Origin: Bacteroidota bacterium
GTDB lineage: Bacteria > Bacteroidota > Bacteroidia > UKL13-3
Reading direction: 5' to 3'
DNA: 64,000 bases
Assembly (NCBI GenBank): GCA_013298895.1
Contig: JAAFJM010000015.1
Span: 7,811 to 71,810 of the forward strand
Every line of letters starts with the position of its first letter. The stretch's first letter is position 1. Below are positions 3,843 to 35,004 of this stretch, in pieces. The notes under the pieces were generated by a model. It saw nothing but the letters and a program-made list of their open reading frames with translations. It ran no database searches and was not told the origin of the DNA. A program made the position numbers and the translations under genes.

Positions 3843-4619
3843 ATGAATTGGATTACTAAAATGTTTAGCTCTTCGCTAGGTCAAAAATTAATCATGGCAC
3901 TTACAGGATTGTTCTTATGCTCATTCTTGATAATACACATGGTAGGAAATTTACAGCTATTTAAACACGATGCTGGATTAGCTTTTAATAAATATGCAGT
4001 ATTTATGACAACAAATCCTTTAATCAAAACCACCTCGTATTTATTATATGCCGCTATTTTGTTTCATGCATTTAAAGGTATTGCTTTGGTTTTCCAGAAC
4101 AAAAAAGCACGTCCAGTTAAGTACCAAGCTTTCGATGGAAAAGCCAATAGCCATTGGAGCAGCCGCAATATGGGTGTTTTAGGAACTATTATTTTAGTTT
4201 TTGTGGTAGTACACATGAGTAATTTTTGGGCAGAATACAAGTTTGGTCATGTGCCTTACACTCGTTATACCGAAAATATTCAAACTGGCGAAATTCAGTC
4301 TGATTACATGCCTGCAGATTTTACCATGAACTCAAAAATGGAAGAGCAAAGCGAAGGTTTAATGAAAGTAACTATTGTAAAAGACTTATTCCGCTCAGTG
4401 GAATTAGGATTTAAAGAATTATGGTTAGTAGCATTATACATTATAGCTATGGCTGCATTATCGTTTCATTTATACCATGGTTTTAAATCGGCTTTCCAAA
4501 CTATGGGTTTAAATCATAAAAAATATAATGGTGCTATAAACTTTATTGGAATTGGCGTGTTTGCTATATTAATTCCAATTGGATTTGCAGCAATGCCACT
4601 TTACTTTTTTATCAAATAA
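3843..4619 (+). CDS. sdhC: succinate dehydrogenase/fumarate reductase cytochrome b membrane subunit (Bacteroidota type)
   Basis: A 258-aa polytopic membrane protein with conserved His residues, sitting immediately upstream of the flavoprotein and iron-sulfur subunits. Confidence 0.75.
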   Translation: MNWITKMFSSSLGQKLIMALTGLFLCSFLIIHMVGNLQLFKHDAGLAFNKYAVFMTTNPLIKTTSYLLYAAILFHAFKGIALVFQNKKARPVKYQAFDGKANSHWSSRNMGVLGTIILVFVVVHMSNFWAEYKFGHVPYTRYTENIQTGEIQSDYMPADFTMNSKMEEQSEGLMKVTIVKDLFRSVELGFKELWLVALYIIAMAALSFHLYHGFKSAFQTMGLNHKKYNGAINFIGIGVFAILIPIGFAAMPLYFFIK

Positions 4620-4653
4620 TTAAATAAACATTTACCGTTAATAATATATAAAG

Positions 4654-6651
4654 ATGTTAGATTCAAAAATTCCTCAAGGCCCAATAGAATCAAAATGGAC
4701 AAAGTACAAATCTACAGTTCCATTGGTAAATCCTGCTAACAAACGTAGTTTAGAAATTATAGTTGTTGGAACAGGTTTGGCAGGGGCTTCGGCTGCTGCT
4801 ACACTAGCCGAGTTAGGTTATAAAGTTAAATCTTTTTGTTTTCAAGATTCTCCTCGTAGAGCGCACTCAATTGCTGCACAAGGAGGTATAAATGCTGCTA
4901 AAAATTATCAAAATGATGGTGACTCAGTTTACCGTTTATTTTATGATACAATTAAAGGTGGTGATTACCGTGCGCGCGAAGCAAACGTTCATCGTTTAGC
5001 TGAAGTAAGTGGTAATATTATTGACCAATCAGTTGCTAGTGGTGTACCTTTTGCTCGCGAATATGGAGGGTTATTAAGTAACCGTTCGTTTGGTGGAACA
5101 CAAGTGCAACGTACTTTTTATGCTGCTGGTCAAACGGGTCAACAGTTATTATTAGGTGCATACTCAGGTTTACAACGCCAAGTTGGTTTAGGTAACGTAC
5201 GTTTATACTCACGCCACGAAATGTTAGATGTGGTTAATATTGATGGCAAATGCCGCGGTATTATAGCTCGCGATTTGGTTTCGGGTAAGTTAGAGCGCCA
5301 CTTTGGACATGCAGTATTGTTATGTACTGGTGGATACGGTAACGTATTTTTCCTTTCAACCAATGCAATGGGAAGTAACGTAACTGCAGCTTGGAAAGCA
5401 CATAAAAAAGGTGCATTCTTTGGCAATCCTTGTTATACTCAAATTCACCCAACTTGTATTCCTGTTTCGGGCGATCACCAATCAAAATTAACTTTGATGA
5501 GTGAATCATTACGTAACGATGGTCGTATTTGGGTTCCAAAACGCAAAGAAGATGCAGCTGCTATTCGCGAAGGAAAATTAAATCCTAACGATTTAAAAGA
5601 AGAAGATAGAGATTATTACTTAGAAAGACGTTATCCTGCGTTTGGTAATTTAGTACCTCGCGATGTGGCTTCACGTGCTGCTAAAGAGCGTTGCGATGCT
5701 GGTTTTGGTGTGAATAAAACAGGCGAAGCTGTTTATTTAGATTTTGCTTTTAACATGAAGTATAAATATGGTAAACAAGTAGCTACTTTAAAACATATTA
5801 CTGACCCAACCGAAGAGCAATTAACTGCATTTGGCCACGAAGTAATTAAAGAAAAATATGGTAATTTATTTGACATGTACAAACAAATTACCGGTGTTGA
5901 TCCTTACAAAAACCCAATGATGATTTACCCTGCGGTACATTACACCATGGGTGGTTTATGGGTTGATTATAACTTAATGACAACCGTTCCTGGTTTATAC
6001 GCTTTAGGTGAAGCTAATTTCTCTGACCACGGTGCTAACCGTTTAGGAGCGTCGGCTTTAATGCAAGGTTTGGCTGATGGTTATTTTGTAATTCCTTATA
6101 CTATTGGTGCTTATTTAGCTAACGAAATCAGTGTAAAACCTATTTCTACAGACCATGAAGCTTTTGTAAAAGCAGAAAACGAAGTTAGCGATAGATTGAA
6201 CAAATTATTAGCTATTAAGGGAACCAAACCAGTTGATTATTTCCACAAACGTTTAGGTAAAATTATGTGGGATAAATGTGGTATGGCTCGTAATGTAGAA
6301 GGTTTAACTTGGGCTATTTCTGAAATTCAAAAAATTAGAGAAGAGTTTTGGAAAGATGTGCGTGTACCGGGCGATGCTAATGAGTTTAATCCTGAATTAG
6401 AAAAAGCTGGTCGTGTAGCAGATTTTATTGAATTAGGCGAACTAATGTGTAAAGATGCTTTAGAGCGTAACGAAAGCTGTGGAGGTCACTTCCGCGAAGA
6501 TTACCAAACTGAAGAAGGTGAAGCATTGCGCGATGATGAAAACTTCAAACATGTAGCTGCTTGGCAGTTCAACGAAGTTGGTAATTGGACTCTAAACAAA
6601 GAAGATTTAGTTTACGAAAACATAAAAATTGCGCAACGTAGCTATAAATAA
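4654..6651 (+). CDS. sdhA: succinate dehydrogenase/fumarate reductase flavoprotein subunit
   Basis: It has the FAD-binding [18 protein letters not shown] motif, an HSIAAQGG site around the covalent-FAD His, and an overall SdhA/FrdA layout at 665 aa. Confidence 0.9.
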
Positions 6652-6728
6652 AAGTTAATAAGTTAAAAGGTTAGCAGTTTATTTAGTTAAACCAATAACC
6701 ATATAATCAACCAATAAAATTAAATAAA

Positions 6729-7496
6729 ATGAGCGGAAATATGAATATCAACTTAAAAGTTTGGCGCCAAAAAAATGGCAAAAGCCAAGGTAAATTAGTT
6801 GATTACAAAGTAGAAGGTGTATCGCCTGATATGTCATTCCTTGAAATGTTTGACGTGTTAAATGATAGATTAGTAAGCGAAGGTAAAGATGAGCCTATTG
6901 CTTTCGATCACGATTGTAGAGAAGGTATTTGTGGTATGTGTAGTATGTACATCAATGGTCGTCCGCATGGACCAAACCAAGGTGTAACTACTTGTCAATT
7001 GCACATGCGTAGTTTCAAAGATGGCGATACCATTGTGGTTGAACCATGGAGAGCTGCTGCATTTCCAGTTATAAAAGATTTAGCTGTGAATAGATCAGCG
7101 TTCGATAGAATTATTGCATCAGGAGGATTTATTTCAGTAAATACTGGTAACGCACAAGATGCTAATAGCTTACCTATTGCAAAAGACAATGCAGATGAAG
7201 CTTTTGCTGCTGCTGCTTGTATTGGCTGTGGTGCTTGTGTGGCTGCTTGTAAAAATTCAAGTGCCATGTTGTTTGTTTCAGCTAAAGTTTCTCAATTGGC
7301 CTTATTGCCTCAAGGCGACCCTGAAAGAAATACACGTGTATTAAACATGGTTGCTCAAATGGATACAGAAGGTTTTGGTGCTTGTACCAATACTGGTGCT
7401 TGTTCTGCTGAGTGTCCTAAAGAAATATCTTTAACCAACATTGCTCGCTTAAACCGTGAGTATTTTGCTGCACAATTAGGTTCAGACAGAAGCTAA
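6729..7496 (+). CDS. sdhB: succinate dehydrogenase/fumarate reductase iron-sulfur subunit
   Basis: It carries the 2Fe-2S ([10 protein letters not shown]), 4Fe-4S and 3Fe-4S cysteine clusters ([23 protein letters not shown]). Confidence 0.9.
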
Positions 7497-7631: not shown

Positions 7632-10328
7632 GTGATAAAAAATTATTTCAAACCATATTTTTTACTTTTAATATTCAGCTTAATTGCCCAATTAGCATTG
7701 GCTACACATTACCGAGCTGGAGAGATTATATATAGGAATTTATCGGGTTTTAATTATGAAATTACTGTTTATACTTATACAGATCAATACCAACTAGGTG
7801 CAGACCCTGGTACAGCATCTATAGTCATTGATTTTGGTGATGGTAAAGTGGAAACTATCAATAGAACTGCAGTTGATATTTTGCTGAGTGATGTGGCATA
7901 CGGTGTTAAAAGAAATACATACAAAACTACACATACCTACACAGGAAGTAGAACTTTTCAATTATGTGTTATAGATAAAAATAGAGTAAATAATATTTTA
8001 AATATTAATGATGGAAGATCTGTTAATATTCCTTTTGCTGTTACATCGCAAATAGTAATTGGTTCAGGTTTTAGCAATCAATCTCCAATTTTACTCTCAC
8101 TTCCCATTGATAGAGGTTGTGTGAATAAACCCTTTGTTCATAATCCAAGTGCCTACGACCCTGATGGAGACAGTTTAGTTTACGAAATTAAACCACCGCT
8201 CTCGGCTTGTGATGAGGTAGTTCCAGGTTTTCAAATACCAGAATATACTGATTCCTTTTCAATCAATCAAAGTACAGGTTTGTTAACTTGGAGAAGTCCC
8301 AAAAGAGTAGGTATCTACAATATAGTTATAAGGGTAAAAGAATACAGAAGGAATGGAAGTATCAAACCAATTTTGGTTGGTTACGTGGATAGAGATATGC
8401 AAATTAGAATTTCGGAATGTTTTAATAATCCACCTTTAATTTCTAAGTTAGAAAACGAGTGTGTTATTGCTGGAACTTTAATTCAGAAAAATATTTCTGC
8501 CACAGATGTTGATGTTACCAATACCATTAAATTATCTGCATTTGGAGGTCCGTTTGTTCAAAAAAATAGTCCAGCGTTCACCAATCCAACAATTGCAAAT
8601 GGAAATCCAACAGGTTTTTTATTTAATTGGAAACCAGCTTGTACTTCCATAAGAGCAAGTGAATTCCAAGCTGATTTTAAAGCAGAGGATAATGGTTCTC
8701 CAATTCCATTAATTGACGTAAATTCATTTAAAATTAAAGTAATTGGTCCTGCACCTAGTCAACTTAAAATTAATCAAGACAGTAATGGATTAAAACTAAC
8801 TTGGAATCCTGATACTTGCAACTTTGCTTTTGGATACCGAATTTACAGGAAAATTGATAGCTCAAATTGGACGCCTGCAGCATGCCAAACAGGTGTACCT
8901 ATCTCTACAGGATTTGTTTTATTAGATACTGTTCAAGGTGTAAATAATACTCAATATTTTGACAATAATAATGGAGCGGGTTTATCCCCATTGATAAATT
9001 ATTGTTATAGAATAACCTCATTTTATTTGGCCAGAAACGATGAAGGAAAAATAGTGCAATTAGCTGAAAGCTCTGAAGGTAAATCTAGTATTGAAATATG
9101 TGCTACCATTATAAGAACCAAACCAATTATAACCAATGTCAGTGTAATTAATACGGACCAATCAAAAGGCAGCATTTTCGTTAAATGGTTAAAGCCGCTA
9201 TTAATAGACAGTTTAGTTTATTTACCACCATATAGTATGCAGTTGCAAAGGTCAATTTATGGAAGTAATATTTTTAATGATGTTAGTACAGCAAAAGTTT
9301 ATAATACCTTCAATGCAATTCAAAACGATAGTTTAATTGATTCAAACATTAATACTCAAAATAATCAATATAATTATCGTGTAATTTTTTATGCTACTAA
9401 AAATGCCAATTTACAATATGTAGATCAAAGTATAAATGCAAGTTCAATTTATGTTAAGCCATACAACTCCAATAGAACAGTAGTTTTAAACTATAAATTT
9501 GAGGTGCCATGGCTCAATAAAATGTATGACATATACAAAAAGTTTGGTACTGATTTCAAGTTGATAGGCACTACTTTTAATCAATCATACAGCGATACTG
9601 GTTTGGTAAATGGCGAAACATACTGTTATTATATAAAGGCTACAGGATTTTATAATCCTAAACTTTTAGCAGATACACTTTTAAATAATTCACAAGAAGT
9701 GTGTGGAACTCCAATTGATACTATTCCACCTTGTACGCCAATTTTGTCGTATATAAGTCCTTGTAATAAATTCAATTCAAGTACTATTATTCTAAATTGG
9801 AAATACCCCAATTTGTGCACACAAGACGTGAAAAATTATAAGGTTTATTACCGAAAGAAAATCAAAGATACATGGAATTTATTGGCAACATTGGATGCAA
9901 GTAATTTTTCATATACCGATACAAACTCTTTGCTAAAATACAGCATTGCTGGTTGCTACGCAGTTACAGCAATAGACTCCATAGGAAATGAAAGTAGCAT
10001 TAATGGAAATGCATTTTGTATTGATAATTGTCCATATTATGTTTTACCCAATGTATTTACTCCAAACAACGATGTAAATAATTTAAATGAGGTGTTTAAA
10101 CCATTTCCATATAGATTTATTGAGAAAATTGAATTGCAAATTTTTAATAGATGGGGAACTCCAGTTTTTGAAACTACCGATATTGATATAAATTGGAATG
10201 GTAAAGATAAAGAAACGGGCAATGAGTTAAGTGCAGGAACCTATTTTTACACTATAAAAATATTTGAGAATTACCTTGGTGGCACAACTGAAAGAAAAGT
10301 GAGGGGAACCATTACTATAATGAGGTGA
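7632..10328 (+). CDS. Large cell-surface protein with a T9SS type-B (gliding-motility-associated) C-terminal sorting domain
   Basis: GTG start and an 898-aa product with signal peptide (LLLIFSLIAQLALA). The body is repeated beta-rich Ig/FN3-like modules. The C-terminus (CIDNCPYYVLPNVFTPNNDVNN...IFNRWGTPVFET...WNGKD...GTYFYTI) matches the CHU_C/TIGR04131-type domain. Confidence 0.6.
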   Translation: MIKNYFKPYFLLLIFSLIAQLALATHYRAGEIIYRNLSGFNYEITVYTYTDQYQLGADPGTASIVIDFGDGKVETINRTAVDILLSDVAYGVKRNTYKTTHTYTGSRTFQLCVIDKNRVNNILNINDGRSVNIPFAVTSQIVIGSGFSNQSPILLSLPIDRGCVNKPFVHNPSAYDPDGDSLVYEIKPPLSACDEVVPGFQIPEYTDSFSINQSTGLLTWRSPKRVGIYNIVIRVKEYRRNGSIKPILVGYVDRDMQIRISECFNNPPLISKLENECVIAGTLIQKNISATDVDVTNTIKLSAFGGPFVQKNSPAFTNPTIANGNPTGFLFNWKPACTSIRASEFQADFKAEDNGSPIPLIDVNSFKIKVIGPAPSQLKINQDSNGLKLTWNPDTCNFAFGYRIYRKIDSSNWTPAACQTGVPISTGFVLLDTVQGVNNTQYFDNNNGAGLSPLINYCYRITSFYLARNDEGKIVQLAESSEGKSSIEICATIIRTKPIITNVSVINTDQSKGSIFVKWLKPLLIDSLVYLPPYSMQLQRSIYGSNIFNDVSTAKVYNTFNAIQNDSLIDSNINTQNNQYNYRVIFYATKNANLQYVDQSINASSIYVKPYNSNRTVVLNYKFEVPWLNKMYDIYKKFGTDFKLIGTTFNQSYSDTGLVNGETYCYYIKATGFYNPKLLADTLLNNSQEVCGTPIDTIPPCTPILSYISPCNKFNSSTIILNWKYPNLCTQDVKNYKVYYRKKIKDTWNLLATLDASNFSYTDTNSLLKYSIAGCYAVTAIDSIGNESSINGNAFCIDNCPYYVLPNVFTPNNDVNNLNEVFKPFPYRFIEKIELQIFNRWGTPVFETTDIDINWNGKDKETGNELSAGTYFYTIKIFENYLGGTTERKVRGTITIMR

Positions 10329-11304: not shown

Positions 11305-12654
11305 ATGAGTAATTTAAAAGAAAACACAAAGCCTGTAAAAGGTAATTTTTTTTCAGATTTGTTTAATTATTTTTATAAAAGTCCTAAAGACTTTACGAAA
11401 AAACAGTGGACAGTTATCAGTGTTTGGATATTGATTAATATTGTTTGCTTAGTGCTTTATATGGCTGCAGGTGCCTCATTTGGTTTGGCATTGCTTAATT
11501 GCCTTTATGGAATACTCATTATTTTTGGATATTTCACCCGACTTATTGCTTTGATTTTAGCTCCTATTTTTATCCTGATTTTTAAAATTGTTGGATTGGT
11601 ATTTAAACAAGAAAATGAAATTCAAACAGCTTACGAATGGAGTGATGCGTTGATATTTGCTACCATAGCAGCCACTATTATCCGCGGATATTTTATGGAA
11701 GCATATACCATTCCTACCTCATCTATGGAAAAATCGTTATTGGTTGGTGATTTTCTTTTTGTAAGTAAATACAGTTATGGTAATAGGTTGCCTCAAACAC
11801 CATTGAGTTTTCCTTTTGTTCATAATAAATTGCCTTTTACCGATAATCAAGTACAATCGTATTTAGAATGGATGAAAATGCCGTACACCAGATTATTTGC
11901 CATATCTACCATTAAAAACAATGATGTAGTAGTATTCAATTATCCATTTGAAATTGATAAACCAACCGATAAAAAGGAAAATTATATTAAACGTTGTGTG
12001 GGTATAGCAGGCGATAGTTTAAAAGTGGTTAATCAGCAATTATTTGTAAATAATAAACCAGCAGATAATCCAGCATTGATGCAACACTTTTATAAGGTTA
12101 CCACTACCGAAGGCATTAGTGAAAAGTTTATTAAAGACAATGATATTACTGAAGGTGGTGCTACCGATAAAGGTTATTTATTAATTAACTTAACTAATCC
12201 TGCTAAAGAAAAATTGAAAAATTCTCCAGGGGTAGTTTCAATAGAAAGGAATGATACCCAATATATCAGTAATTACACTTCCTTTCAAGAAAAATTCAAG
12301 TGGAGTATTGATGATTTTGGACCTATTTACATTCCAAAACAAGGTGATGTAGTTGAAATGAACGAACATAACTACGACATATACGAATTTGCTATTAAGC
12401 ATTATGAAAACAACCCAACATTTACTTGGGAAAATGGACAAGCCATGCTAGACGGAAAAGCGGTAAAAACATATCAATTTAAGTATAATTATTACTTTAT
12501 GATGGGCGATAACCGCGATAATTCAGCCGACAGCCGCTTTTGGGGTTTTGTGCCTGAAACACATATTGTAGGTAAAGCACTTTTTGTTTGGATGAGCTGG
12601 GATTCAGGAAACAGTGCAGTAAGATGGAAACGTTTATTTAAATCAATTAAATAA
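11305..12654 (+). CDS. lepB: signal peptidase I
   Basis: It has the catalytic Ser (IPTSSMEKSLLVGDFLFVSK), the GDNRDNSADSRFWGFVP box and N-terminal TM helices. Confidence 0.8.
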   Translation: MSNLKENTKPVKGNFFSDLFNYFYKSPKDFTKKQWTVISVWILINIVCLVLYMAAGASFGLALLNCLYGILIIFGYFTRLIALILAPIFILIFKIVGLVFKQENEIQTAYEWSDALIFATIAATIIRGYFMEAYTIPTSSMEKSLLVGDFLFVSKYSYGNRLPQTPLSFPFVHNKLPFTDNQVQSYLEWMKMPYTRLFAISTIKNNDVVVFNYPFEIDKPTDKKENYIKRCVGIAGDSLKVVNQQLFVNNKPADNPALMQHFYKVTTTEGISEKFIKDNDITEGGATDKGYLLINLTNPAKEKLKNSPGVVSIERNDTQYISNYTSFQEKFKWSIDDFGPIYIPKQGDVVEMNEHNYDIYEFAIKHYENNPTFTWENGQAMLDGKAVKTYQFKYNYYFMMGDNRDNSADSRFWGFVPETHIVGKALFVWMSWDSGNSAVRWKRLFKSIK

Positions 12655-12686
12655 AATGAACTGCAGTTTGTAAAACTGATTTAACT

Positions 12687-13514
12687 ATGAATCATATTCC
12701 AACCTTTAACTTTCGAAATATCGGTCGTAAAGAAAAGTTAGTAGATGTATTACCATGGGATTATTCTAATTTTTACCAAACTGAAAAAGTACATTGCCAC
12801 GATTACCATGAATTATTTGTAATTACAAGTGGTTCAGGAGTTCATCAAATAGATGGAGTAGAATATGCTATTCAATCCAATTCATTTCATATAGTTCCTA
12901 ATTTTTTCTCTCATAAATTTCAGCGCGAGCAAGGAACTATAGGTTTTACCATTGCCATTCAAAGTATTTTTATAGAACAGCTCTGTAATTTTGATAAAGT
13001 ATCAAATTATATAGCACTTTTTGAAAAAGAACACCTAATTGACCTTGGTTCAATTGATTTTAATAGCTTTCATTTTTTTGTGAATGAAATTCAAAACCAA
13101 GGTATAAACGATGCTTATATGCAAAATATTTGCGCAGCCATTTTACTCAAAATTATTGCGTTCATAAAGACAGATTCAGTTATTGAAAATAACTTTTCGA
13201 GTTTAGTTAGAAAAACTTTATTGCGCAATTACAAAAAGAGGTTATCGAATGAACAGTATGCCGATATGTTCAGCATGACGGCTATTAGCTTTAATTTGAA
13301 GGTTAAAAAAGCAACAGGTAAAACGATGATACAAATGCAAAATGAACTGCTTATATCAAACATAAAAAGGTTACTGTTCAATACCGATGCTAATTTAAAA
13401 GAAATTGCCTTCGATTTTGGTTTTAGTGATTATGCCCACTTTTCAAATTTTTTCAAAAAACATACTGGCAGTTCGCCCATGAATTTTAAAAAAGAAATCC
13501 AAAACATACAATAA
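12687..13514 (+). CDS. AraC-family transcriptional regulator (cupin-like N-terminal domain + C-terminal AraC HTH)
   Basis: The C-terminal HTH region has the AraC pattern FNLKVKKATGKTMIQMQNELLISNIKRLLFNTDANLKEIAFDFGFSDYAHFSNFFKKHTG. It lies directly upstream of the haem-motif operon. Confidence 0.7.
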   Translation: MNHIPTFNFRNIGRKEKLVDVLPWDYSNFYQTEKVHCHDYHELFVITSGSGVHQIDGVEYAIQSNSFHIVPNFFSHKFQREQGTIGFTIAIQSIFIEQLCNFDKVSNYIALFEKEHLIDLGSIDFNSFHFFVNEIQNQGINDAYMQNICAAILLKIIAFIKTDSVIENNFSSLVRKTLLRNYKKRLSNEQYADMFSMTAISFNLKVKKATGKTMIQMQNELLISNIKRLLFNTDANLKEIAFDFGFSDYAHFSNFFKKHTGSSPMNFKKEIQNIQ

Positions 13515-13579
13515 TTGAATAAGAATTGACAACTAATTTATTTTGGGTATCATTAGTTTTGTTTAAAAATAAAACAATT

Positions 13580-14410
13580 ATGAATTATACAAAACTAGTT
13601 ACTTTAAGTATTTTATTACTTTTTATTTGTGTTTGGAGTTTTGAAACTCACTCTATGTCAGGTGGGGCTTTAGAAGTTACTGGATCAACCCCAGGAGAAA
13701 ACTGCACTGGATGTCATCAAGGTATAGCCAATACTGATAGTAAAGGTGGAATTGCCATAGCCATAGCTGGTAATCCAACTTATTATGAGCCTGGTAAAAC
13801 ATACGATATGAGTGTTACCATTAATTACCCCACAAGAACAAGATTTGGTTTTGGGTTGAATATTAGAAAAAAAGGAAATGTATGGCAACCAATTGGAAGT
13901 TTGACAGCAGAAAATAATTCTGGGGTTTCTGCTCGCGGTACTTTTGCAACACATGAGTTAAAAGGTATAGATGCTGCTAATTCCAAAACTTGGATATTTA
14001 AGTGGACCGCACCACAAACATTAGATACATTTATATTTTATACAAGTGGTATTGCTGCTAATAACGATAAAGATGCTACTGGAGATATTACTTACACCAC
14101 AAGCAAAACAATATTTCCTTCAATAACCACAAGTGATAAAAGTATAAAGCCTTTATTATTGAAAGGTATTTATCCTAATCCAGCGCAAAATGAAATTGAA
14201 GTTGAAATGGAAGTAAGTTCACCTGATTTTTTTGAAATATCATTACTTGATATAAATGGCAGTTTAAAAGAAACGCTACTCCCTAAAACGCTGCTATCGG
14301 GAAATCAACAGCTACAATTTAAATTTACAAATGAGTACCCTAAAGGAATTTATTTCTTAAAGGTGTTTTCAAAAAATCATAATAGTTTTCAAAAAATAAT
14401 TATTTTGTAA
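13580..14410 (+). CDS. Secreted Reeler/DOMON-like domain protein with an N-terminal CXXCH motif and a T9SS C-terminal sorting domain
   Basis: Start trimmed to MNYTKLVTLSILLLFICVWSF (signal peptide). CTGCH sits right after the signal. The Reeler-like pattern is G.P...C..CH...YYEPGKTYDMSVTI...TRFGFGLNI...WIFKWTAP. The C-terminus (GIYPNPAQNEIEVEM...GIYFLKVFS...KIIIL) is a type-A T9SS CTD. Confidence 0.55.
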   Translation: MNYTKLVTLSILLLFICVWSFETHSMSGGALEVTGSTPGENCTGCHQGIANTDSKGGIAIAIAGNPTYYEPGKTYDMSVTINYPTRTRFGFGLNIRKKGNVWQPIGSLTAENNSGVSARGTFATHELKGIDAANSKTWIFKWTAPQTLDTFIFYTSGIAANNDKDATGDITYTTSKTIFPSITTSDKSIKPLLLKGIYPNPAQNEIEVEMEVSSPDFFEISLLDINGSLKETLLPKTLLSGNQQLQFKFTNEYPKGIYFLKVFSKNHNSFQKIIIL

Positions 14411-14482
14411 TAAAATGGATGTTTTTTTTATTATTTACTAAATAAAATTATAGATTTGGAAAAGGATAGAAAAACATATTGA

Positions 14483-14959
14483 ATGAAAAAAACAAAATTA
14501 ATTGTTTGCTTATCGACTATATTTAGCTTGTTAGTTATTGGTTGTTCCCATTACGATGAACTTCAAAAAAATAGCAAAGAAAGTAAGGCTAATGATGATG
14601 AAAGCCATAATACAGGACAAGATTGTATGAGTTGTCACAATAACTCTTCAAATGAAGCTTCAAGTGAAGGATGGTGGAACGTAGCTGGCTCAGTATATTC
14701 TGGCAATTCACCTGCGAATAATGTAACAGTTGAACTTTGGAGTGAGCCTAATGGCGCAGGTTTTAAAATTTTAACTTTAACATCAGATACAAAAGGAAAT
14801 TTTTATACCAATAAAATTATCAACTTCAATGGTGGATGCTATCCAGTGGTTATTAGTGGTTCAAAACGAAAGAATATGATTTCTAAATTCATGGGCGGAA
14901 TGAGTTGTTCTAATTCCAATTGCCATGGTGGTATAATAGATAAAATAAACTTCAATTAA
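14483..14959 (+). CDS. Small lipoprotein with a CXXCH motif (putative haem-binding)
   Basis: Lipoprotein signal MKKTKLIVCLSTIFSLLVIGCS. It has CMSCH plus a second Cys-His cluster, CSNSNCHGG, near the C-terminus. Confidence 0.5.
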   Translation: MKKTKLIVCLSTIFSLLVIGCSHYDELQKNSKESKANDDESHNTGQDCMSCHNNSSNEASSEGWWNVAGSVYSGNSPANNVTVELWSEPNGAGFKILTLTSDTKGNFYTNKIINFNGGCYPVVISGSKRKNMISKFMGGMSCSNSNCHGGIIDKINFN

Positions 14960-14964
14960 ATTAA

Positions 14965-15318
14965 ATGAAAAAAGTACTTTACTCAACATTACTCTTTGGC
15001 TTTATTGTTTTAACAGGCTGTTATTACGATAAAGAAGATAAATTGTATCCAAACTCAACAAACAATACAGATTGCAATGCTGTTTTAACTTATGATACAG
15101 GTATAAAAACAATTATTGATGCAAATTGCGCCTCTTCGGGTTGTCATAATTCTGGAGGTACTTCACCTGATTTATCTAACTATAGTTTAGTAAAAGCCAG
15201 TGCAACAAAAATTACACTAAGAGCCATAACGCAAAAAAACATGCCAGCTCCTTCTGGAATGTCTTCATGTAATATAACAAAATTAGATAATTGGATAAAA
15301 GCAGGAATGCCACAATAA
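14965..15318 (+). CDS. Small lipoprotein with a PSCyt1-like (Planctomycete-cytochrome-c-like) domain and a CX4CH motif
   Basis: Lipoprotein signal ...FIVLTGCY. IKTIIDANCASSGCH...NMPAPSGMSSCNITKLDNWIKAGMP matches the PSCyt1 pattern I recall (I.PIl...C..CH...MP....L.....I..WI..GA), but the spacing is C-x4-CH. Confidence 0.5.
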   Translation: MKKVLYSTLLFGFIVLTGCYYDKEDKLYPNSTNNTDCNAVLTYDTGIKTIIDANCASSGCHNSGGTSPDLSNYSLVKASATKITLRAITQKNMPAPSGMSSCNITKLDNWIKAGMPQ

Positions 15319-15326
15319 GTAAGAAA

Positions 15327-16235
15327 ATGAAAAAAAATATACTTTTTATAACCATGCTTTTAATGGTAAATTTTGCTTGGGCTCAGGATGATTTATTAGA
15401 CATGTTAAAAGATGAAAATACAAAATCAAACCCTGTATTAGCAACCTTTAAAGGAACAAGAATTATTACAGGTCAAAGCAACGAAAATATTTCTAAGAAA
15501 CACTTAAACTTCTTGATTCTGCACCGTTTTGGTGAATTAAAAGACGATGCATGGTATTATAGTCTTTTAGGAATTGATGCAGCTACAGTTCGTTTGGCAT
15601 TTGATTATGGGGTTACAGACAAATTAATGATTGGTGTAGGCCGCAGTTCTGTTTCTAAAATTTATGACTTCAATGTAAAATACAAACTTTTACAACAAAC
15701 AACTGGAGGTAAAAGGAATTCACCATTAGCAATTTCATATTATGGAAACATGGGTCTTAATACAACCACTTTCTCTGATTTAACTAGAAACAACTTTTTT
15801 ACATCCCGTTTAAATTTCTGTAATCAATTAATTTTGGCGCGTAAATTTAATGATAAAGTTTCAATACAAATTACACCAACAATGGTACACAGAAATTTAG
15901 TAGCTAAAACAAGTGATCCTAATTCTGTTTTTGCATTAGGGTTGGGTGGTTCATTTAAAATTACAAGAAGCACAAGGTTTAATATTGAGTATTATCCTCG
16001 TTTAAATGGCAGAGATGAATTAGCTTCAAATGGTAAAACTTTTAATGATTATTTAGCCATAGGTTTTGATATAGAAACAGGAGGACACGTATTTCAGTTA
16101 ATGTTTAGCAATTCTACATACATGTATGAACAAGGTTTTGTGGCTCAAACTACTGGTAGTTGGAGTGATTTAGCAATACGTTTAGGTTTTAACCTTTCAC
16201 GTACATTCTCATTCGATAATGAAGCCAAACATTAA
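15327..16235 (+). CDS. DUF5777-like outer-membrane beta-barrel protein
   Basis: Start trimmed to MKKNILFITMLLMVNFAWAQ (signal peptide). It has alternating amphipathic beta-strands and the HRFG motif I recall as typical of DUF5777. Family assignment is from memory. Confidence 0.5.
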   Translation: MKKNILFITMLLMVNFAWAQDDLLDMLKDENTKSNPVLATFKGTRIITGQSNENISKKHLNFLILHRFGELKDDAWYYSLLGIDAATVRLAFDYGVTDKLMIGVGRSSVSKIYDFNVKYKLLQQTTGGKRNSPLAISYYGNMGLNTTTFSDLTRNNFFTSRLNFCNQLILARKFNDKVSIQITPTMVHRNLVAKTSDPNSVFALGLGGSFKITRSTRFNIEYYPRLNGRDELASNGKTFNDYLAIGFDIETGGHVFQLMFSNSTYMYEQGFVAQTTGSWSDLAIRLGFNLSRTFSFDNEAKH

Positions 16236-16286
16236 TAACTATAACCAATTGGCACTGTTATTGAAATAAAATTAATAAATAATAAA

Positions 16287-16964
16287 ATGAAAAAAATTAC
16301 CACCATTCTAACGTTTAGCAGCTTACTAATTTTTGGTATGTGTAAACATGAAACTACCACAATTATAAATGGAGGTAATGGATTAACTGATACTACAAAA
16401 ATAAATGATAATCCCAAAAATGATTCAGTTTGTTTTAACACCCAAATTTTGCCACTTATTACTGCAAGTTGTGCGCAAGTTGGATGTCATGACCCAAGTA
16501 GTAGAGTTGAAGGTTTAATTTTAAATTCATACTCAGGAATAATGAATATGGGAACAAAAGATTTACTAAAATATATTAAATTAACATCAGGTAAAATGAT
16601 GCCACCACCTCCACAACCAAGGTTAGATCAAGTAAATATTGACCTCATTCAGCGTTGGGTTAATGAGGGTGCAAAAAATACAATTTGTAATATTACAAGC
16701 TGCGATACTTTAAATGTAAAATACACCAGTCATATTGCTCCAATTATGAATACATATTGCAAAGGCTGTCATAATTCAAGTAATTTAGGAGGAGGAGTAA
16801 ATTTAGATAATTATGCTGCTGTTAAAACTAGCACATTAACAGGGAAAATAATATGTACAATTACAGCCAACGGTTGTGCAATTATGCCAAAAGGTGGTCC
16901 TGCATTAAGTAATTGTAATGTACGTAAAATTAAAATTTGGGCTTCGGCTAATTGCCCTCAATAA
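16287..16964 (+). CDS. Lipoprotein with two tandem PSCyt1-like domains (CX4CH and CXXCH)
   Basis: Lipobox LLIFGMC. Domain 1 is FNTQILPLITASCAQVGCHDPS...MMPPPPQPRLDQVNIDLIQRWVNEGA. Domain 2 is IAPIMNTYCKGCHNSS...IMPKGGPALSNCNVRKIKIWASANCP. Confidence 0.55.
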   Translation: MKKITTILTFSSLLIFGMCKHETTTIINGGNGLTDTTKINDNPKNDSVCFNTQILPLITASCAQVGCHDPSSRVEGLILNSYSGIMNMGTKDLLKYIKLTSGKMMPPPPQPRLDQVNIDLIQRWVNEGAKNTICNITSCDTLNVKYTSHIAPIMNTYCKGCHNSSNLGGGVNLDNYAAVKTSTLTGKIICTITANGCAIMPKGGPALSNCNVRKIKIWASANCPQ

Positions 16965-16985
16965 TTAAAACTAAATAGTAAATAT

Positions 16986-17540
16986 ATGAAAAAATTAATT
17001 TTAACCATAAGCGCAGTTTCCTTAGTTGCATTTGGAAACATAAAAGCTCAAACTTTATATAAAGCAACAAATGCTGAGGTAAGTTTTTATTCAAAAACTC
17101 CAATGGAGGATATTGATGGAAAATCAACTACAGCTACTGCTTTAATTAATCCAGAAAAAAAGGACCTTGCCTTTGTCATTCAAAATGTTTCATTTCAATT
17201 TCCAAACAAATTGATGCAAGAACATTTTAATGAAAAATACATGGAAAGTGAAAAATACCCACTGAGCCAATTCAGAGGAACTGTTCAAGAAAACATTGAT
17301 CTAAAAGTAAATGGCGAATACAAAGTAACGGTTAAAGGCAAACTTACCATTCACGGTGTTGAACAAGAAAGGACAATTTCTGGTATTATTACCGTAAGCG
17401 AAGGTAAATTAGAATTAACCAGTAATTTTAAGGTTAAAAATGCTGACCATAAAATAGAAATACCTAAGTTGGTAGTAGCCAAAATTGCGGAGGAATTAGA
17501 TGTTCAAGTGAAAGCTACTTTGCTTCCAAAAGTAAAATAG
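16986..17540 (+). CDS. YceI family protein
   Basis: Signal peptide plus the YceI-like pattern YKATNAEVSFYSKTPMEDIDGKS...FVIQNVSFQFPNKLMQEHFNEKYMESEKYPLSQFRG. It is the last gene of the operon. Confidence 0.65.
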   Translation: MKKLILTISAVSLVAFGNIKAQTLYKATNAEVSFYSKTPMEDIDGKSTTATALINPEKKDLAFVIQNVSFQFPNKLMQEHFNEKYMESEKYPLSQFRGTVQENIDLKVNGEYKVTVKGKLTIHGVEQERTISGIITVSEGKLELTSNFKVKNADHKIEIPKLVVAKIAEELDVQVKATLLPKVK

Positions 17541-17562
17541 ATTTTTATGAATAATATTATTT

Positions 17563-17598
17563 AAAGGCTGTCTTCAAAAGAGACAGCCTTTATTTTTT
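17563..17598 (+). terminator. Rho-independent terminator closing the 13580..17540 operon
   Basis: Stem AAAGGCTGTCT / AGACAGCCTTT followed by ATTTTTTAA. Confidence 0.7.
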
Positions 17599-17651
17599 AA
17601 TAATAATTTACATTTTTGAATCAAAATAAATTCATAACCTTGCCTTCCAAT

Positions 17652-18983
17652 ATGAAATCAAAATTATTTTTATTTATTTTCTTTACTTTATTAATTAATA
17701 AGGTGATTCATGCTCAAACGGAGCAACAGATTTTTACTGAAGAAGGAAAAAAAATAATATCATTATTTGTTAATAGAAACTATGATAGTCTTACTTTATG
17801 TTTTAACGACAAACAAAGATTGTATAATAGCCCAACCGCTATTGCTTCCAATTACGAGCCTTTGATTGAAAAATATGGAAATATTCAAACGGTTAAATTT
17901 GCAGGATTTAAAGGTAATTATGAGCAGATAACAGTTCAATTTGTTTGTAATACAGCGTATAATATTGGTTTACTTGTTGAGTTAATTTTTAACAATATAA
18001 ATAAAAAAATCATTTATTATAAATTCACCGAAACTTATAAAATATATGCTATTCCCGAATATGTAAATGCAGAGTTATTTACCGAAAATACTATAAATTT
18101 TCACTCAGATAGCACTATGCCATTAACTGGATTTTTAACTTTGCCTGTTATCAAAGAAAAAGTACCATTAATTATAATAATTCCAGATGCTGGTCCAACC
18201 GATGCTGATGGAGTTTATAATTCAAAACCATATAAAGATATTGCTTATGGACTTTCGAGCTATGGTTTTGCTACATTTAGATATAATAAACGAAGCATTA
18301 ATTATGGGTTTAACCTTAACCAAGACAAAGTAAATAATAAAGTATTTACTCCTAAAGAGGATGTTATTGACGATTTGTTGTCGGGCATAGAAGCAATAAA
18401 AGGTAATCCAAACATTGATACTACAAAAATTTATTTACTAGGACATGGGGAAGGGGCATATTTGGCTCCATACATAGCAAGCAACTACAAAAATATTTGT
18501 GGCATAATAATGATTAATGCAAATGCAAATCATCCTTTAGAAATGATGATAGAACAACATAAATATTTAGGCAAAATTTTACCTCATAAAAAAGAGCATT
18601 TAGATGAAGATGATTTAAAAGCCAAAAAAGTATTAAAAGGGAATTTTGATTCAAAAACTCATTATGCTGAACTTCCATTTGATGTGCCTGCTAGTTATTG
18701 GCTTTGGATTAATAATTATAAACAAGTTAAAACAACAAAAAAATTATCAATCCCTATTTTTATTATTCAAGGAGAGCGCAATTACCAGGTTGATAAAGCA
18801 AACTTTTATGCTTGGAAAAAAAAGCTCAAAAGAAACAAAAACGTATCTTTTAAAACCTATGAAAATTTAAACCACATAATGCATGAAGGAGTTGGAGAAT
18901 CCACCTATAGCGAATATGGTATGATGGTTCATATTCCTTTTTTTGTAATTGATGACCTACAAAAGTGGCTCAAAGTAAATTAA
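17652..18983 (+). CDS. alpha/beta-hydrolase-fold protein (dienelactone hydrolase / S9-like) with a Ser-to-Gly nucleophile elbow (GHGEG)
   Basis: Start trimmed to MKSKLFLFIFFTLLINKVIHAQ (signal peptide). It has the hydrolase-fold landmarks IIIIPDAGPTDADG, LLGHGEGAYLAPYIA, IFIIQGERNYQV and NLNHIMHEG. Confidence 0.5.
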   Translation: MKSKLFLFIFFTLLINKVIHAQTEQQIFTEEGKKIISLFVNRNYDSLTLCFNDKQRLYNSPTAIASNYEPLIEKYGNIQTVKFAGFKGNYEQITVQFVCNTAYNIGLLVELIFNNINKKIIYYKFTETYKIYAIPEYVNAELFTENTINFHSDSTMPLTGFLTLPVIKEKVPLIIIIPDAGPTDADGVYNSKPYKDIAYGLSSYGFATFRYNKRSINYGFNLNQDKVNNKVFTPKEDVIDDLLSGIEAIKGNPNIDTTKIYLLGHGEGAYLAPYIASNYKNICGIIMINANANHPLEMMIEQHKYLGKILPHKKEHLDEDDLKAKKVLKGNFDSKTHYAELPFDVPASYWLWINNYKQVKTTKKLSIPIFIIQGERNYQVDKANFYAWKKKLKRNKNVSFKTYENLNHIMHEGVGESTYSEYGMMVHIPFFVIDDLQKWLKVN

Positions 18984-19020
18984 TGTTTGTTTACTTTTTT
19001 TAGTCGAAACGGTATAAGCA

Positions 19021-19055
19021 AAAAAGGCAGCTCAAAATTTAAGCTGCCTTTCTTA
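19021..19055. terminator. Bidirectional hairpin between convergent genes
   Basis: AAGGCAGCT / AGCTGCCTT stem flanked by A/T runs, between 17652..18983 (+) and fabI (-). Confidence 0.5.
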
Positions 19056-19075
19056 TTAAATTTATAAATATTAAA

Positions 19076-19894
19076 TTATTCTGCGTCTTTACCTACATTA
19101 AACACATCGGGGCTAAAGCCTGTAAAGCTAAATCCACCATCGTGGAAAAGGTTTTGCATGGTTACCATTCGGGTAAAATCACTAAACATAGCTACACAAT
19201 ACTCAGCACATTGTTCAGCATTCGCATTTCCTAATGGACTCAACGCTTCTGCGTAGTCAAAGAAATCGCCAAAACCTTTTACTCCACTACCAGCAGTAGT
19301 TTTAGTCGGACTTTGCGAAATAGTATTGATACGCACTTTTTTATGTTTACCATATTGGTAACCAAAACTGCGCGAAATGCTTTCTAATAATGATTTTGCA
19401 TCAGCCATTTCGCTATAATCAGGGAAAATTCGCTGTGCTGCTATATAAGTTAAGGCCACTACCGAACCCCAATCGTTAATAGCATCTTTTTTATAACAAG
19501 TAGCTAACAAACGATGAAAACTCATAGCCGATATATCCAAAGTATCGTGCATAAATTTATAATCTAAATTGGTATAAACATTACCTTTTCTGATATTCAT
19601 ACTCATACCCACCGAATGCAAAATAAAATCAATTTTACCACCTAAAATTTCCATCGATTTATCGATTAAATTTTCCATATCTTCATTTTTACTCACATCG
19701 CATGGAATAATTTGAGCATTTCCGCAAGCTGCTGATAAATTATTAATTTCGCCCATACGCATAGCAATTGGCGCATTAGTTAAAACAAATTCGGCACCTT
19801 GCTCATGACATTTTAAAGCTACTTGCCATGCAATTGATTTATCGTTTAAGGCACCAAAAATGATTCCTTTTTTTCCTTTCAATAAATTATTCAT
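19076..19894 (-). CDS. fabI: enoyl-[acyl-carrier-protein] reductase (NADH)
   Basis: GKKGIIFGALNDKSIAWQVALKCHEQGAEFVL matches the FabI Rossmann N-terminus, and there is a YxxxxxK region. Confidence 0.8.
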   Translation of the reverse strand: MNNLLKGKKGIIFGALNDKSIAWQVALKCHEQGAEFVLTNAPIAMRMGEINNLSAACGNAQIIPCDVSKNEDMENLIDKSMEILGGKIDFILHSVGMSMNIRKGNVYTNLDYKFMHDTLDISAMSFHRLLATCYKKDAINDWGSVVALTYIAAQRIFPDYSEMADAKSLLESISRSFGYQYGKHKKVRINTISQSPTKTTAGSGVKGFGDFFDYAEALSPLGNANAEQCAEYCVAMFSDFTRMVTMQNLFHDGGFSFTGFSPDVFNVGKDAE

Positions 19895-26503: not shown

Positions 26504-27616
26504 TTATTGCATGTAACGCATTACAATATCGTAGGTTGGGAAGTTATAAGCACTCCATTTTTTTACAACCACTCCACCTTTCATTAATATCAATCCTGGG
26601 TTTGAGCGAACCATTGATTTTAAAGGAACTGCATCTACTGTATAATAATTAAATGCCAATTGATTTTGATGGCGATAAGCTTCTAAAGTTTCAGCCGAAG
26701 TAGCAGTTAAAGCCCAAAATTCTTTGCAATCTTTTTTACAATCATCGGCTAATAAAGCTATTTGTTTTTCTAAGCCTTTGCGCCCTTCAGTTACTGATTT
26801 TTGAACCAACACAAGCTTATATCCTTTGTTAGCAAATAAACTATCAGTATAGTTTAAACCATCGGTATTGGTAAGGCTAAAGTCGTGAATAGGCGGCTTG
26901 CAACCTTCGCGCACTACTTTATCAATTCTATCTACAAATTTATAGTTGGTATCGTTTGGAATATGGTTAACATCAAACTCTTCTTTTACGCCATTTTTTT
27001 CGTAAATAAACATCATAACTACTGAATCAACTGGGGAACCCGGAGGGCAAACCATTTTTTCAGGAATATTATTGCCAACTTTATAAGGTAAAAAATCTTT
27101 TACTGGTAAAAACATATAAGTGTAAAAAGTAAAGAATGTTACCACTAAAAATGCTACGGAAAGAGCAATATTTTGTAAGGTAAATTTCATCAAAGGTTTT
27201 AAGTGTTTTTGTCCAAAGAAAATGAATAAAATAAACACCAATAAAATCAAATCTTTATAGAACGACTCGACAGGTTTTAACTTAATGGCATCGCCAAAGC
27301 AACCGCAATCGGTAACTTTATGTGTAATGGCTGAATAACCCGTTAAAAGTGTAAAAAACACTATCATTAATAACAATAACCATGCATTTAGTTTGTTAAA
27401 AGCACCTAGCAATAATGCTACACCACTAATAATTTCGAAAATACATATAAACATGGCCAAAGCCACTGCATAAGGAATAAAAATTGGCATGTTAAATACC
27501 TCAAAGTATTCTTCTAATTTATAACTAAAACCTATGGTATCATTGGCCTTAATTAATCCTGAAATAATAAATAATACGCCTACAAATACTCGGCTAATTT
27601 GTGTTATAATTTTCAT
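26504..27616 (-). CDS. BT_3928-like membrane protein (DoxX/MauE-like N-terminal domain with CGCFGD motif + C-terminal thioredoxin-like domain)
   Basis: An N-terminal 4-TM region carries VTDCGCFGD. The C-terminal region is soluble. Confidence 0.55.
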   Translation of the reverse strand: MKIITQISRVFVGVLFIISGLIKANDTIGFSYKLEEYFEVFNMPIFIPYAVALAMFICIFEIISGVALLLGAFNKLNAWLLLLMIVFFTLLTGYSAITHKVTDCGCFGDAIKLKPVESFYKDLILLVFILFIFFGQKHLKPLMKFTLQNIALSVAFLVVTFFTFYTYMFLPVKDFLPYKVGNNIPEKMVCPPGSPVDSVVMMFIYEKNGVKEEFDVNHIPNDTNYKFVDRIDKVVREGCKPPIHDFSLTNTDGLNYTDSLFANKGYKLVLVQKSVTEGRKGLEKQIALLADDCKKDCKEFWALTATSAETLEAYRHQNQLAFNYYTVDAVPLKSMVRSNPGLILMKGGVVVKKWSAYNFPTYDIVMRYMQ

Positions 27617-32452: not shown

Positions 32453-33205
32453 ATGAAAAAGATATATTTTAAAACAATAATTACTGGGCTAATTTTAAGT
32501 TTTATCCAACTAAACACTAATGCTCAATGTACACCTGATTTAAGCCTACAATCAACAGGAGTTTACCCTGTTATTCTACCCTCAGCAAAAGTAGGACTTC
32601 CATATAGTGAAATATTGCAATTTCATGTAGTTAAAGATTCTTCAGTTACAGTTCCTGTTTTTGGAAAAGTAGATGCAACAATTGATTCATTTACCATATT
32701 CAAAGTAAATGGTATTCCCGAAGGAATGAGTTTCATTTGTAATACATCAAATTGTACTATTCCTGGTGGTGGAAATGGTTGCGCCAAAATTACTGGAACA
32801 CCAACTACAAAAGGGATTTACCCTCTTCAAATTATTTTAAAAGTAAGAGTTACAGCTCTTGGCTTTACTCAAACCCAATTAGATACCATGAATAATTATA
32901 CCGTTACTGTAGAAAGTGGTTTAGGTATTAACAATGGCTATGATTTAAAAAATGCTGGCTATAAAATTTTTCCAAACCCAATTACCAACAATCAATTAAA
33001 TTTAGAAATTTGGAATAATGATGCATCCAACTGCACAGTTCAGTTATTCAGTATGCAAGGCAAAGAGGTTTTTAACCAACAATTTGATTTAAATTTTGGA
33101 CTAAATAAAAACACCATCAATACCGAACAATTGGCTAAAGGCATTTATTTGGTTAAAATTAACCACGAAAACAGCCAATTTGAACAAAAAATTATAATAG
33201 AATAA
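32453..33205 (+). CDS. Secreted protein with a T9SS type-A C-terminal sorting domain
   Basis: Signal peptide from MKKIYFKTIITGLILSFIQLNTNAQ. The C-terminus (KIFPNPITNNQLNLEI...GIYLVKINHENSQFEQKIIIE) is a typical Por_Secre_tail. Confidence 0.5.
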   Translation: MKKIYFKTIITGLILSFIQLNTNAQCTPDLSLQSTGVYPVILPSAKVGLPYSEILQFHVVKDSSVTVPVFGKVDATIDSFTIFKVNGIPEGMSFICNTSNCTIPGGGNGCAKITGTPTTKGIYPLQIILKVRVTALGFTQTQLDTMNNYTVTVESGLGINNGYDLKNAGYKIFPNPITNNQLNLEIWNNDASNCTVQLFSMQGKEVFNQQFDLNFGLNKNTINTEQLAKGIYLVKINHENSQFEQKIIIE

Positions 33206-34992: not shown

Positions 34993-35004
34993 AATGCCAT
35001 TGTT

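Follow-up and report, generated by a model that had tools for sequence, protein, structure and literature searches.

The gene at positions 13580 to 14410 of a 64-kb stretch of Bacteroidota DNA (positions 7,811 to 71,810 of contig JAAFJM010000015.1, assembly GCA_013298895.1; the whole stretch is called the window below) encodes a 276-residue protein of the choice-of-anchor V family. Its main domain is homologous to the Reeler domain of animals, it carries a CXXCH motif with the look of a haem c attachment site, and it ends in a sorting tail for the T9SS (type IX secretion system). We lean, with modest confidence, towards reading it as T9SS cargo in which a Reeler-type beta-sandwich would hold a covalently attached haem and serve a redox role. 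We are less confident about any specific electron-transfer partner. The reading draws on comparisons of sequences, predicted structures and gene neighbourhoods. An earlier, sequence-only reading of the same DNA had pointed out the Reeler-like pattern, the motif and the tail, and the strings that it quoted from the protein (GSTPGENCTGCHQG, YYEPGKTYDMSVTIN, TRFGFGLNI and WIFKWTAP) match the open reading frame (ORF) exactly.

The choice-of-anchor V family

The target is a typical full-length member of an already catalogued and very large family, NF041895, and the gene itself is not new. Pfam sees nothing in the protein except the sorting tail. The NCBIfam profile NF041895 matches it at 98.8 bits (cutoff 42, E 2.9e-28), aligning residues 15–176 with positions 1–149 of the 150 in the profile, with a further, weak match to the related MYXO-CTERM family NF041894 (the MXAN_6652 family). 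Like NF041895 members in general, the target has a single N-terminal domain with a sorting signal after it, and it shows no structural difference from them. Among representatives of 50%-identity clusters, a domain-only profile (alignment A2) matches 7,790 at E<=1e-3 and still matches 5,232 when the limit is set at E<=1e-10. The sequence-only reading had thought that a covalent-haem Reeler variant on the cell surface would be unusual; the protein is an ordinary member of a family of this size and not a one-off.

The name of the family refers solely to the variable anchors of its members. The target has a T9SS tail, and members in loci L017 and L005 (loci from other genomes and metagenomes bear the prefix L) have a Soli_cterm anchor (TIGR03437). 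Matches in genomes come from Bacteroidota (Saprospiraceae, Flavobacteriales, Cytophagales and Chitinophagales) and from Blastocatellia, and the nearest relative among them is from a freshwater Bacteroidetes metagenome-assembled genome, with 94% identity across the domain. Public records label the homologs "choice-of-anchor V domain-containing protein" or "Reeler domain". A literature search found no study on the function, haem content or Reeler relationship of the family.

The C-Xn-CH motif and a linked second position

The case for haem begins with conservation. The sequence-only reading had let its proposal depend on the cysteines being conserved in orthologs, and they are. Both cysteines and the adjoining histidine are invariant in 16/16 homologs, close and distant, and again in 164/164 sequences of a larger family set made up of 15 word-index matches and 149 further 50%-identity cluster representatives. 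Equally invariant in the larger set are the W, A and P of "WTAP" and one Asp. A cysteine immediately followed by a histidine is the signature of haem c, and this "CH" dipeptide is constant throughout the 164. The distance back to the first cysteine is what varies, with CX2CH in 94 sequences, CX4CH in 66, CX8CH in 2 and CX3CH in 1. The earlier claim that the Cys and His positions are spaced as in a c-type haem motif is thus right for the target, which has CXXCH, and has to be widened for the family to C-Xn-CH with n of 2, 3, 4 or 8.

The residues between the cysteines are TG, TS, TA, SA, IA or QS, which we take, from general knowledge, to be similar to those in ordinary cytochrome c motifs; Gly precedes the second cysteine in 58 of the 66 CX4CH sequences. 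With the amino-acid composition of the window, the expected number of chance C..CH patterns is 5e-4 in a protein of 276 residues and 0.03–0.06 in all long ORFs of the window. Because the expectation is only 5e-4 per protein, the motif in the target is not a chance pattern. In the AlphaFold2 (AF2) model of the domain, it sits in a one-turn helix.

A second position varies together with the motif. Column 108 of the family profile, which is His125 in the target, holds His in 106 of the 164 sequences, Tyr in 54 and Gln in 4. The choice follows the spacing of the cysteines: His is found in 92 of 95 sequences with CX2CH and Tyr in 54 of 66 with CX4CH. Such a link fits a distal haem ligand that would be coupled to the attachment loop. 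Polymorphism in cysteine spacing (C-X2/X4/X8 and then CH, at homologous positions) was also seen more widely, being common to three unrelated families of these neighbourhoods (alignments A3, A4 and A5).

Relationship to Reeler domains

The domain is homologous to Reeler, on the combined evidence of Pfam matches in homologs, profile matches, structural matches to the AF2 model and alignment of profiles with hhalign. The body of the target is beta-rich and contains the strings YYEPGKTY, RFGFG and KWTAP. The Pfam search suggested by the sequence-only reading gives a divided answer. The target protein does not match the Pfam Reeler profile (PF02014, gathering score 21 bits) even at E<=10, whereas 10 of the 16 homologs match at E<=10, and P0248 (34.4 bits), P0175 (28.5 bits) and P0011 (27.8 bits) are among those that exceed the gathering score. 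Searched against the PDB, the family profile matches three solved F-spondin reeler domains at E 2e-4.

The beta-sandwich that the sequence-only reading had proposed to look for by AlphaFold is there, and it is of the Reeler type. A first AF2 model of the full-length protein, made with 16 sequences, had a predicted local distance difference test score (pLDDT) below 50 around the motif. It was superseded by a model of the domain (residues 22–185) made with 134 sequences, for which the pLDDT is 92.1 and the predicted template modelling (TM) score 0.88. The top 8 Foldseek matches to this model in the PDB are all F-spondin reeler chains (2zot, 2zou and 3coo; E 5.6e-7 to 1e-5), with a best TM score of 0.58/0.67, and generic Ig-like folds come after them.

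The residue-level parallel with Reeler, including the alignment of Cys and His, is also upheld. We compared the bacterial family (alignment A3) with a eukaryotic Reeler set (alignment A7, P0271–P0289) that contains ferric-chelate reductase 1 (FRRS1) and the fish "putative defense proteins". hhalign gives 95% probability and E 3.6e-8 over 112 columns. It pairs the first bacterial Cys with the Cys of the animal C..M.P.HG pattern, the His of the bacterial "CH" with the animal His of that pattern, and the His of the bacterial "T-H-T/E" (His125 in the target) with the His of the animal "S-H-T". Among themselves, the animal FRRS1 and "defense protein" domains of alignment A7 share C..M.P.HG and a downstream "AVSHTS". 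That both of their histidines align with the positions of His46 and His125 hints at a conserved ligand site in the animal Reeler domains as well. The long-range disulfide of the Reeler superfamily is a different matter. The Cys of the animal "LLTC" has no counterpart in the bacterial alignment, and in 131 of the 164 bacterial domains the two motif cysteines are the only ones present.

The sequence-only reading had also brought in the DOMON superfamily. No DOMON family appears in Pfam scans of the target and its homologs at E<=10, and the 50 best Foldseek matches in the PDB include no structure of a DOMON, cellobiose dehydrogenase (CDH) or CBM9 domain. We reject a DOMON relationship on this evidence.

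Export signals and gene start

The T9SS tail is genuine. Pfam PF18962 matches residues 197–275 at 44.8 bits (cutoff 27) and TIGR04183 matches the C-terminal tail at 38.3 bits (cutoff 23). The organism uses T9SS, as judged by four further ORFs of the window that end in such tails (7632–10328, with CHU_C; 32453–33205; 35005–36585; and 61168–62031). No gene of the T9SS machinery was seen in scans of the 64-kb window. Together with the hydrophobic stretch at the N-terminus, the tail predicts export through the periplasm, which is the site of haem attachment. We considered and rejected the possibility that the target is a lipoprotein, since Cys17 is not preceded by a lipobox; the three small neighbouring proteins do carry lipoboxes.

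A longer ORF from a TTG start at 13526 was likewise rejected, as the orthologs P0002–P0008 begin at the Met equivalent to 13580. Upstream of the gene, TTGACA-16-TATCAT is the best sigma-70-like match within 12600–19100, with 11/12 positions. The Bacteroidota promoter motif TAnnTTTG has upstream copies at 13554 and 14451, and its frequency in the window is not above chance, so the promoter evidence is weak.

The gene cluster in the window

The target is followed by five genes on the same strand (Table 1). From 13580 to 17540, the intergenic gaps are 5–72 bp, and no terminator-like site was found over that span. Four adjacent genes of this cluster hold six C-X2/4-CH motifs, compared with about 0.06 expected in the whole window. 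The cluster is preserved in L001–L004, where the AraC-family gene is also present in the same position.

Table 1. Features of the choice-of-anchor V gene and its surroundings, in window coordinates.
Feature	Position	Strand	Basis
AraC-family regulator, candidate regulator of the cluster	12687..13514	+	Pfam HTH_18, AraC_binding; same position in L001–L004
Promoter-like TTGACA-16-TATCAT, plus TAGTTTTG at 13554–13561	13526..13561	+	Sigma-70-like motif match
Choice-of-anchor V / Reeler-fold protein with CXXCH and T9SS tail, 276 aa	13580..14410	+	ATG start; ORF reading, Pfam, NCBIfam
Predicted Sec-type signal peptide, about aa 1–25	13580..13654	+	MNYTKLVTLSILLLFICVWSFETHS without lipobox; AF2 helix aa 3–24; inferred
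Choice-of-anchor V domain, aa 15–176, Reeler-type beta-sandwich	13622..14107	+	NF041895, AF2, Foldseek, hhalign
C42-T-G-C45-H46, putative haem c attachment site with proximal His	13703..13717	+	Invariant in family; short helix in AF2
His125 in "FATHE", candidate distal ligand	13952..13954	+	Profile column 108; aligns with eukaryotic "SHT" His
W142-T-A-P145, core Reeler motif W.AP	14003..14014	+	Aligns with W.AP of F-spondin and FRRS1
T9SS type A C-terminal sorting domain, aa 197–276	14168..14407	+	PF18962, TIGR04183
158-aa lipoprotein, truncated divergent paralog of the target domain; CMSCH and C-terminal CSNSNCH	14483..14959	+	hhalign
117-aa lipoprotein, PSCyt1/class-I-like cytochrome c, CX4CH and Met-Pro	14965..15318	+	Alignment A4
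DUF5777 predicted outer-membrane beta-barrel	15327..16235	+	PF19089, E 1.4e-89
225-aa lipoprotein, two PSCyt1-like cytochrome c domains (CAQVGCH, CKGCH)	16287..16964	+	Pfam, A4
YceI-like protein, last cluster gene	16986..17540	+	PF04264, E 2e-13
Terminator-like hairpin closing the cluster, 13-bp stem and T run	17562..17592	+	Sequence scan

The small lipoproteins have the character of cytochromes. The 158-residue lipoprotein keeps the CXXCH and the first strands of the target domain (hhalign to the family 92.7%, E 4e-7), and its C-terminal CX4CH is CX2CH in the L004 ortholog. The 225-residue lipoprotein has matches to PSCyt1 (23.5 bits, cutoff 22) and to Cytochrome_CBB3 (26.9 bits). In an alignment of the neighbouring small lipoproteins (A4), the two Cys, the His, a Met-Pro and a Trp are invariant, and the spacing between the cysteines is 2, 4 or 8. 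The profile of this alignment has weak matches in the PDB, all to cytochromes c (PccH, the hydrazine synthase haem domain, c552 and c5). Variable cysteine spacing is, by these alignments, compatible with real cytochrome c folds in these lineages.

Elsewhere in the window, positions 3843–7496, upstream of the target, encode a succinate dehydrogenase/fumarate reductase with its cytochrome b, flavoprotein and Fe-S subunits, and positions 26504–27616 encode a MauE/DoxX membrane protein. A DUF1800 and DUF1501 pair is found at 33283–36585, in which the DUF1501 protein has a Tat-like MKRRDFLQK... start and a T9SS type A tail. We know of no other example of a Tat-like start combined with a T9SS tail.

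Contexts in other lineages

Family genes occur beside redox genes in other lineages as well, in several arrangements. L009 and L024 have the gene order multihaem cytochrome, family gene and then a CcsBA fusion (ResB and Cytochrom_C_asm), and in L032 a CcsA gene lies upstream of a related module. In L005 and in L017, the latter titled Blastocatellia, two to three tandem family genes with the Soli_cterm anchor stand beside Rieske, cytochrome b and cytochrome c genes. Between that Rieske/cytochrome set and the family genes, both loci encode DUF5777 proteins of about 410 residues with an N-terminal CATCH extension (L017:6177-7409 and L005:2845-4068). DUF5777 accompanies a family gene in L007 and L102, together with a cytochrome-like lipoprotein (CX8CH) in the former and YceI in the latter. 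L006 is an MbnP/MbnH locus, in which the family gene is found together with MbnP, a MauG-like dihaem peroxidase and a small cytochrome c. In L025, two tandem genes with T9SS tails, one looked up as a family member and the second known by its T9SS tail, stand next to genes for a multicopper oxidase, HMA and a TonB-dependent receptor; the multicopper oxidase, which has a T9SS sorting tail of its own, is at L025:3837-5576. The titles of L003, L004 and L005 ("uncultured Bifidobacterium sp." or "uncultured Heliobacteriaceae bacterium") look wrong for loci with Bacteroidota-type T9SS cargo or Blastocatellia-type Soli_cterm clusters.

Several of these loci share DUF5777 with the window. The module around that barrel was surveyed in 80 metagenome loci (L030–L109). 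The conserved core of these loci is a set of cytochrome c-like proteins or a Rieske lipoprotein, together with YceI and DUF5777. YceI is adjacent in 62/80 and PSCyt1-like cytochrome c lipoproteins are present in 47/80. A general linkage of the choice-of-anchor V family with DUF5777 was rejected, given one shared locus among the 80 with DUF5777 and DUF5777 in 7/22 family loci. Since the family appears in just 1/80, the link to the DUF5777 module is lineage-specific, and the target is an addition, made in particular lineages, to an envelope redox module that is itself widespread.

The module has other recurring parts. It often includes a tRNA_anti-like protein of 135–150 residues, and LytTR or other two-component regulators are often found upstream. 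In two loci (L060:4545-4985 and L044:4421-4867), a Rieske [2Fe-2S] lipoprotein with a Tat signal replaces the small cytochromes just upstream of the DUF5777 barrel. L060 additionally has a P-type cation ATPase and a resistance-nodulation-division (RND) pump fused to an OEP domain.

Proposed mechanism and competing readings

We propose that the protein would be exported by Sec and then transported by T9SS to the cell surface or the medium. In the periplasm, the System II cytochrome c synthase CcsBA would attach one haem covalently to both cysteines. The haem would have His46 as its proximal ligand and probably His125 as its distal one, which would give a monohaem c-type cytochrome on a beta-sandwich scaffold. 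The holo-protein might then be the outermost redox centre of an envelope module shared with the lipoprotein paralog, the two class-I-like cytochrome c lipoproteins, the DUF5777 barrel and YceI. Through it, the periplasm or outer membrane would give electrons to an extracellular acceptor or receive them from an extracellular donor, with Fe(III) or Cu(II) as the most plausible partner. The animal Reeler-DOMON-b561 ferric reductases (PMC10691727) offer a functional analogy to such a role.

A number of observations weigh against this proposal. A mixture of 57% CX2CH and 40% CX4CH inside one family is unusual for haem c, and a Cys pair 2–8 residues apart could instead close a small disulfide loop of variable length. 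The equivalent first Cys of the eukaryotic Reeler domain is reportedly disulfide-bonded in F-spondin structures. The relation between His or Tyr and the cysteine spacing may just mirror two subfamilies. There is no cytochrome c maturation gene within the 64-kb window. Some contexts, namely L025 and L006, are related to copper instead of to cytochromes. In a large Saprospiraceae clade, the family gene has no redox neighbours and is accompanied by a DUF4783 gene only. Finally, the choice-of-anchor V domain is found in only one of the 80 DUF5777 loci.

Several of these points can be accommodated if the protein is a copper- or iron-binding or metal-reducing protein of Reeler fold that holds no haem. 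A Cys42–Cys45 disulfide loop would then replace the long-range disulfide of the animals, His46 and His125 (Tyr elsewhere) would bind the metal ion on the surface of the sandwich, and the role would be in extracellular copper or iron handling. The variable loop length suits such a site, as do the copper-related neighbours (the multicopper oxidase, HMA and TonB-dependent receptor of L025; the MbnP and MauG-like peroxidase of L006). So does the alignment of both histidines with conserved His of the eukaryotic domains, which have C..M.P.H and SHT and no second Cys and so do not form haem c, and so does the fact that animal Reeler-DOMON-b561 proteins are ferric reductases (PMC10691727). However, CcsBA and multihaem cytochromes adjoin the family gene in two genomes, and the same spacing variants are seen in the neighbouring cytochrome c folds. 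The strict adjacency of Cys and His is the hallmark of haem c, and the residues between the cysteines look like those of cytochrome c motifs (general knowledge). We judge a site free of haem, the main rival, to be unlikely.

It is quite improbable, in our estimation, that the protein is a surface adhesin or glycan-recognition module like insect and vertebrate Reeler, with the C-Xn-CH merely structural and the cytochrome neighbours functionally unrelated. The fold would suit that role, as would the plan of one domain with a choice of anchors, seen in many T9SS adhesins, and the many family members without redox neighbours. It would nevertheless leave unexplained why a His stays invariant beside the second Cys over 164 divergent sequences, why cytochrome, CcsBA and bc-complex contexts recur in different phyla, and why the target sits in an operon-like layout with short gaps and no terminator-like site before 17562. 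A haemophore that is secreted by T9SS to scavenge haem by non-covalent capture is very improbable. The protein is a secreted T9SS cargo, and haemophores typically use His and His/Tyr as ligands (general knowledge). Known haemophores do not, however, have paired cysteines right before a His, no gene for haem uptake or for a TonB-dependent receptor is present in the target cluster, and the neighbours are cytochrome c-like.

Significance and comparison with known systems

If haem attachment as we favour it is true, thousands of proteins labelled "choice-of-anchor V" or "T9SS sorting domain" in Bacteroidota, Acidobacteriota and Myxococcota would be surface cytochromes of a new fold class. It would also point to redox reactions at the outer surface, iron or copper reduction for example, of aerobic bacteria from fresh water and soil that are not known for extracellular electron transfer. 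If haem is not bound, the target would be one more uncharacterised secreted beta-sandwich protein. A literature search found no report of c-type cytochromes as T9SS cargo, and none of a publication that reads the family as Reeler-fold c-type cytochromes or notes the residue-level match to animal Reeler. Apart from PMC10691727, nothing relevant was found in the literature on DUF5777, on MXAN_6652, on cytochromes in connection with T9SS, or on the binding of haem or metal by Reeler.

The target cluster is comparable, at the level of description, to the outer-membrane electron conduits Cyc2, a fused cytochrome-porin, and MtrCAB (general knowledge), in that it likewise joins an outer-membrane barrel, small cytochromes and a candidate surface cytochrome. 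The DUF5777 barrel with its own N-terminal CXXCH extension in L005 and L017 resembles a fused cytochrome-porin as in Cyc2. Two differences are the small size of DUF5777 (about 250 residues) and the proposed delivery to the surface by T9SS in place of the type II secretion used for MtrC.

For haem c on a beta-sandwich, cytochrome f provides the precedent that the arrangement works (general knowledge). It is a c-type cytochrome on such a scaffold, with CXXCH about 20 residues from the mature N-terminus. It belongs to the b6f complex as a subunit anchored in the membrane, and its sixth ligand is the N-terminal amino group. Neither a PDB profile search nor Foldseek gave a sequence or fold match between cytochrome f and the target family. 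The haem b of DOMON domains is held by Met and His, without a covalent bond. The DOMON haem domains, such as the cytochrome of cellobiose dehydrogenase and the DOMON of CYBDOM, are further examples of extracellular beta-sandwiches able to bind haem, and they co-occur with Reeler in animal ferric reductases (PMC10691727).

A further comparison is with the eukaryotic Reeler domain itself (PF02014), as found in F-spondin, FRRS1/SDR2 and the insect and fish "putative defense proteins". Both domains have the same beta-sandwich fold, and the motifs F.GF and W.AP are common to them. The eukaryotic domain has a single Cys in C..M.P.H, joined by a disulfide to the distant "LLTC" Cys, a partner that is missing from the bacterial domain. 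What sets the bacterial domain apart is a second Cys immediately in front of the His, giving the haem c motif, along with its bacterial setting and T9SS export. More broadly, and only tentatively, choice-of-anchor V may be an unrecognised class of surface beta-sandwich c-type cytochromes, with T9SS or other anchors, whose haem site (first Cys, His and His/Tyr) would be the counterpart of the conserved Cys/Met/His and His site of animal Reeler. The Reeler domain of FRRS1/SDR2 ferric reductases and insect "defense proteins" would in that case be a haem- or metal-binding redox site and not just an adhesion module. The animal Reeler-DOMON-b561 proteins are ferric reductases in which the Reeler domain's function is stated to be unknown (PMC10691727), and the match of the bacterial Cys, His and His to animal residues supplies a testable idea for what that domain does in ferric-chelate reductases.

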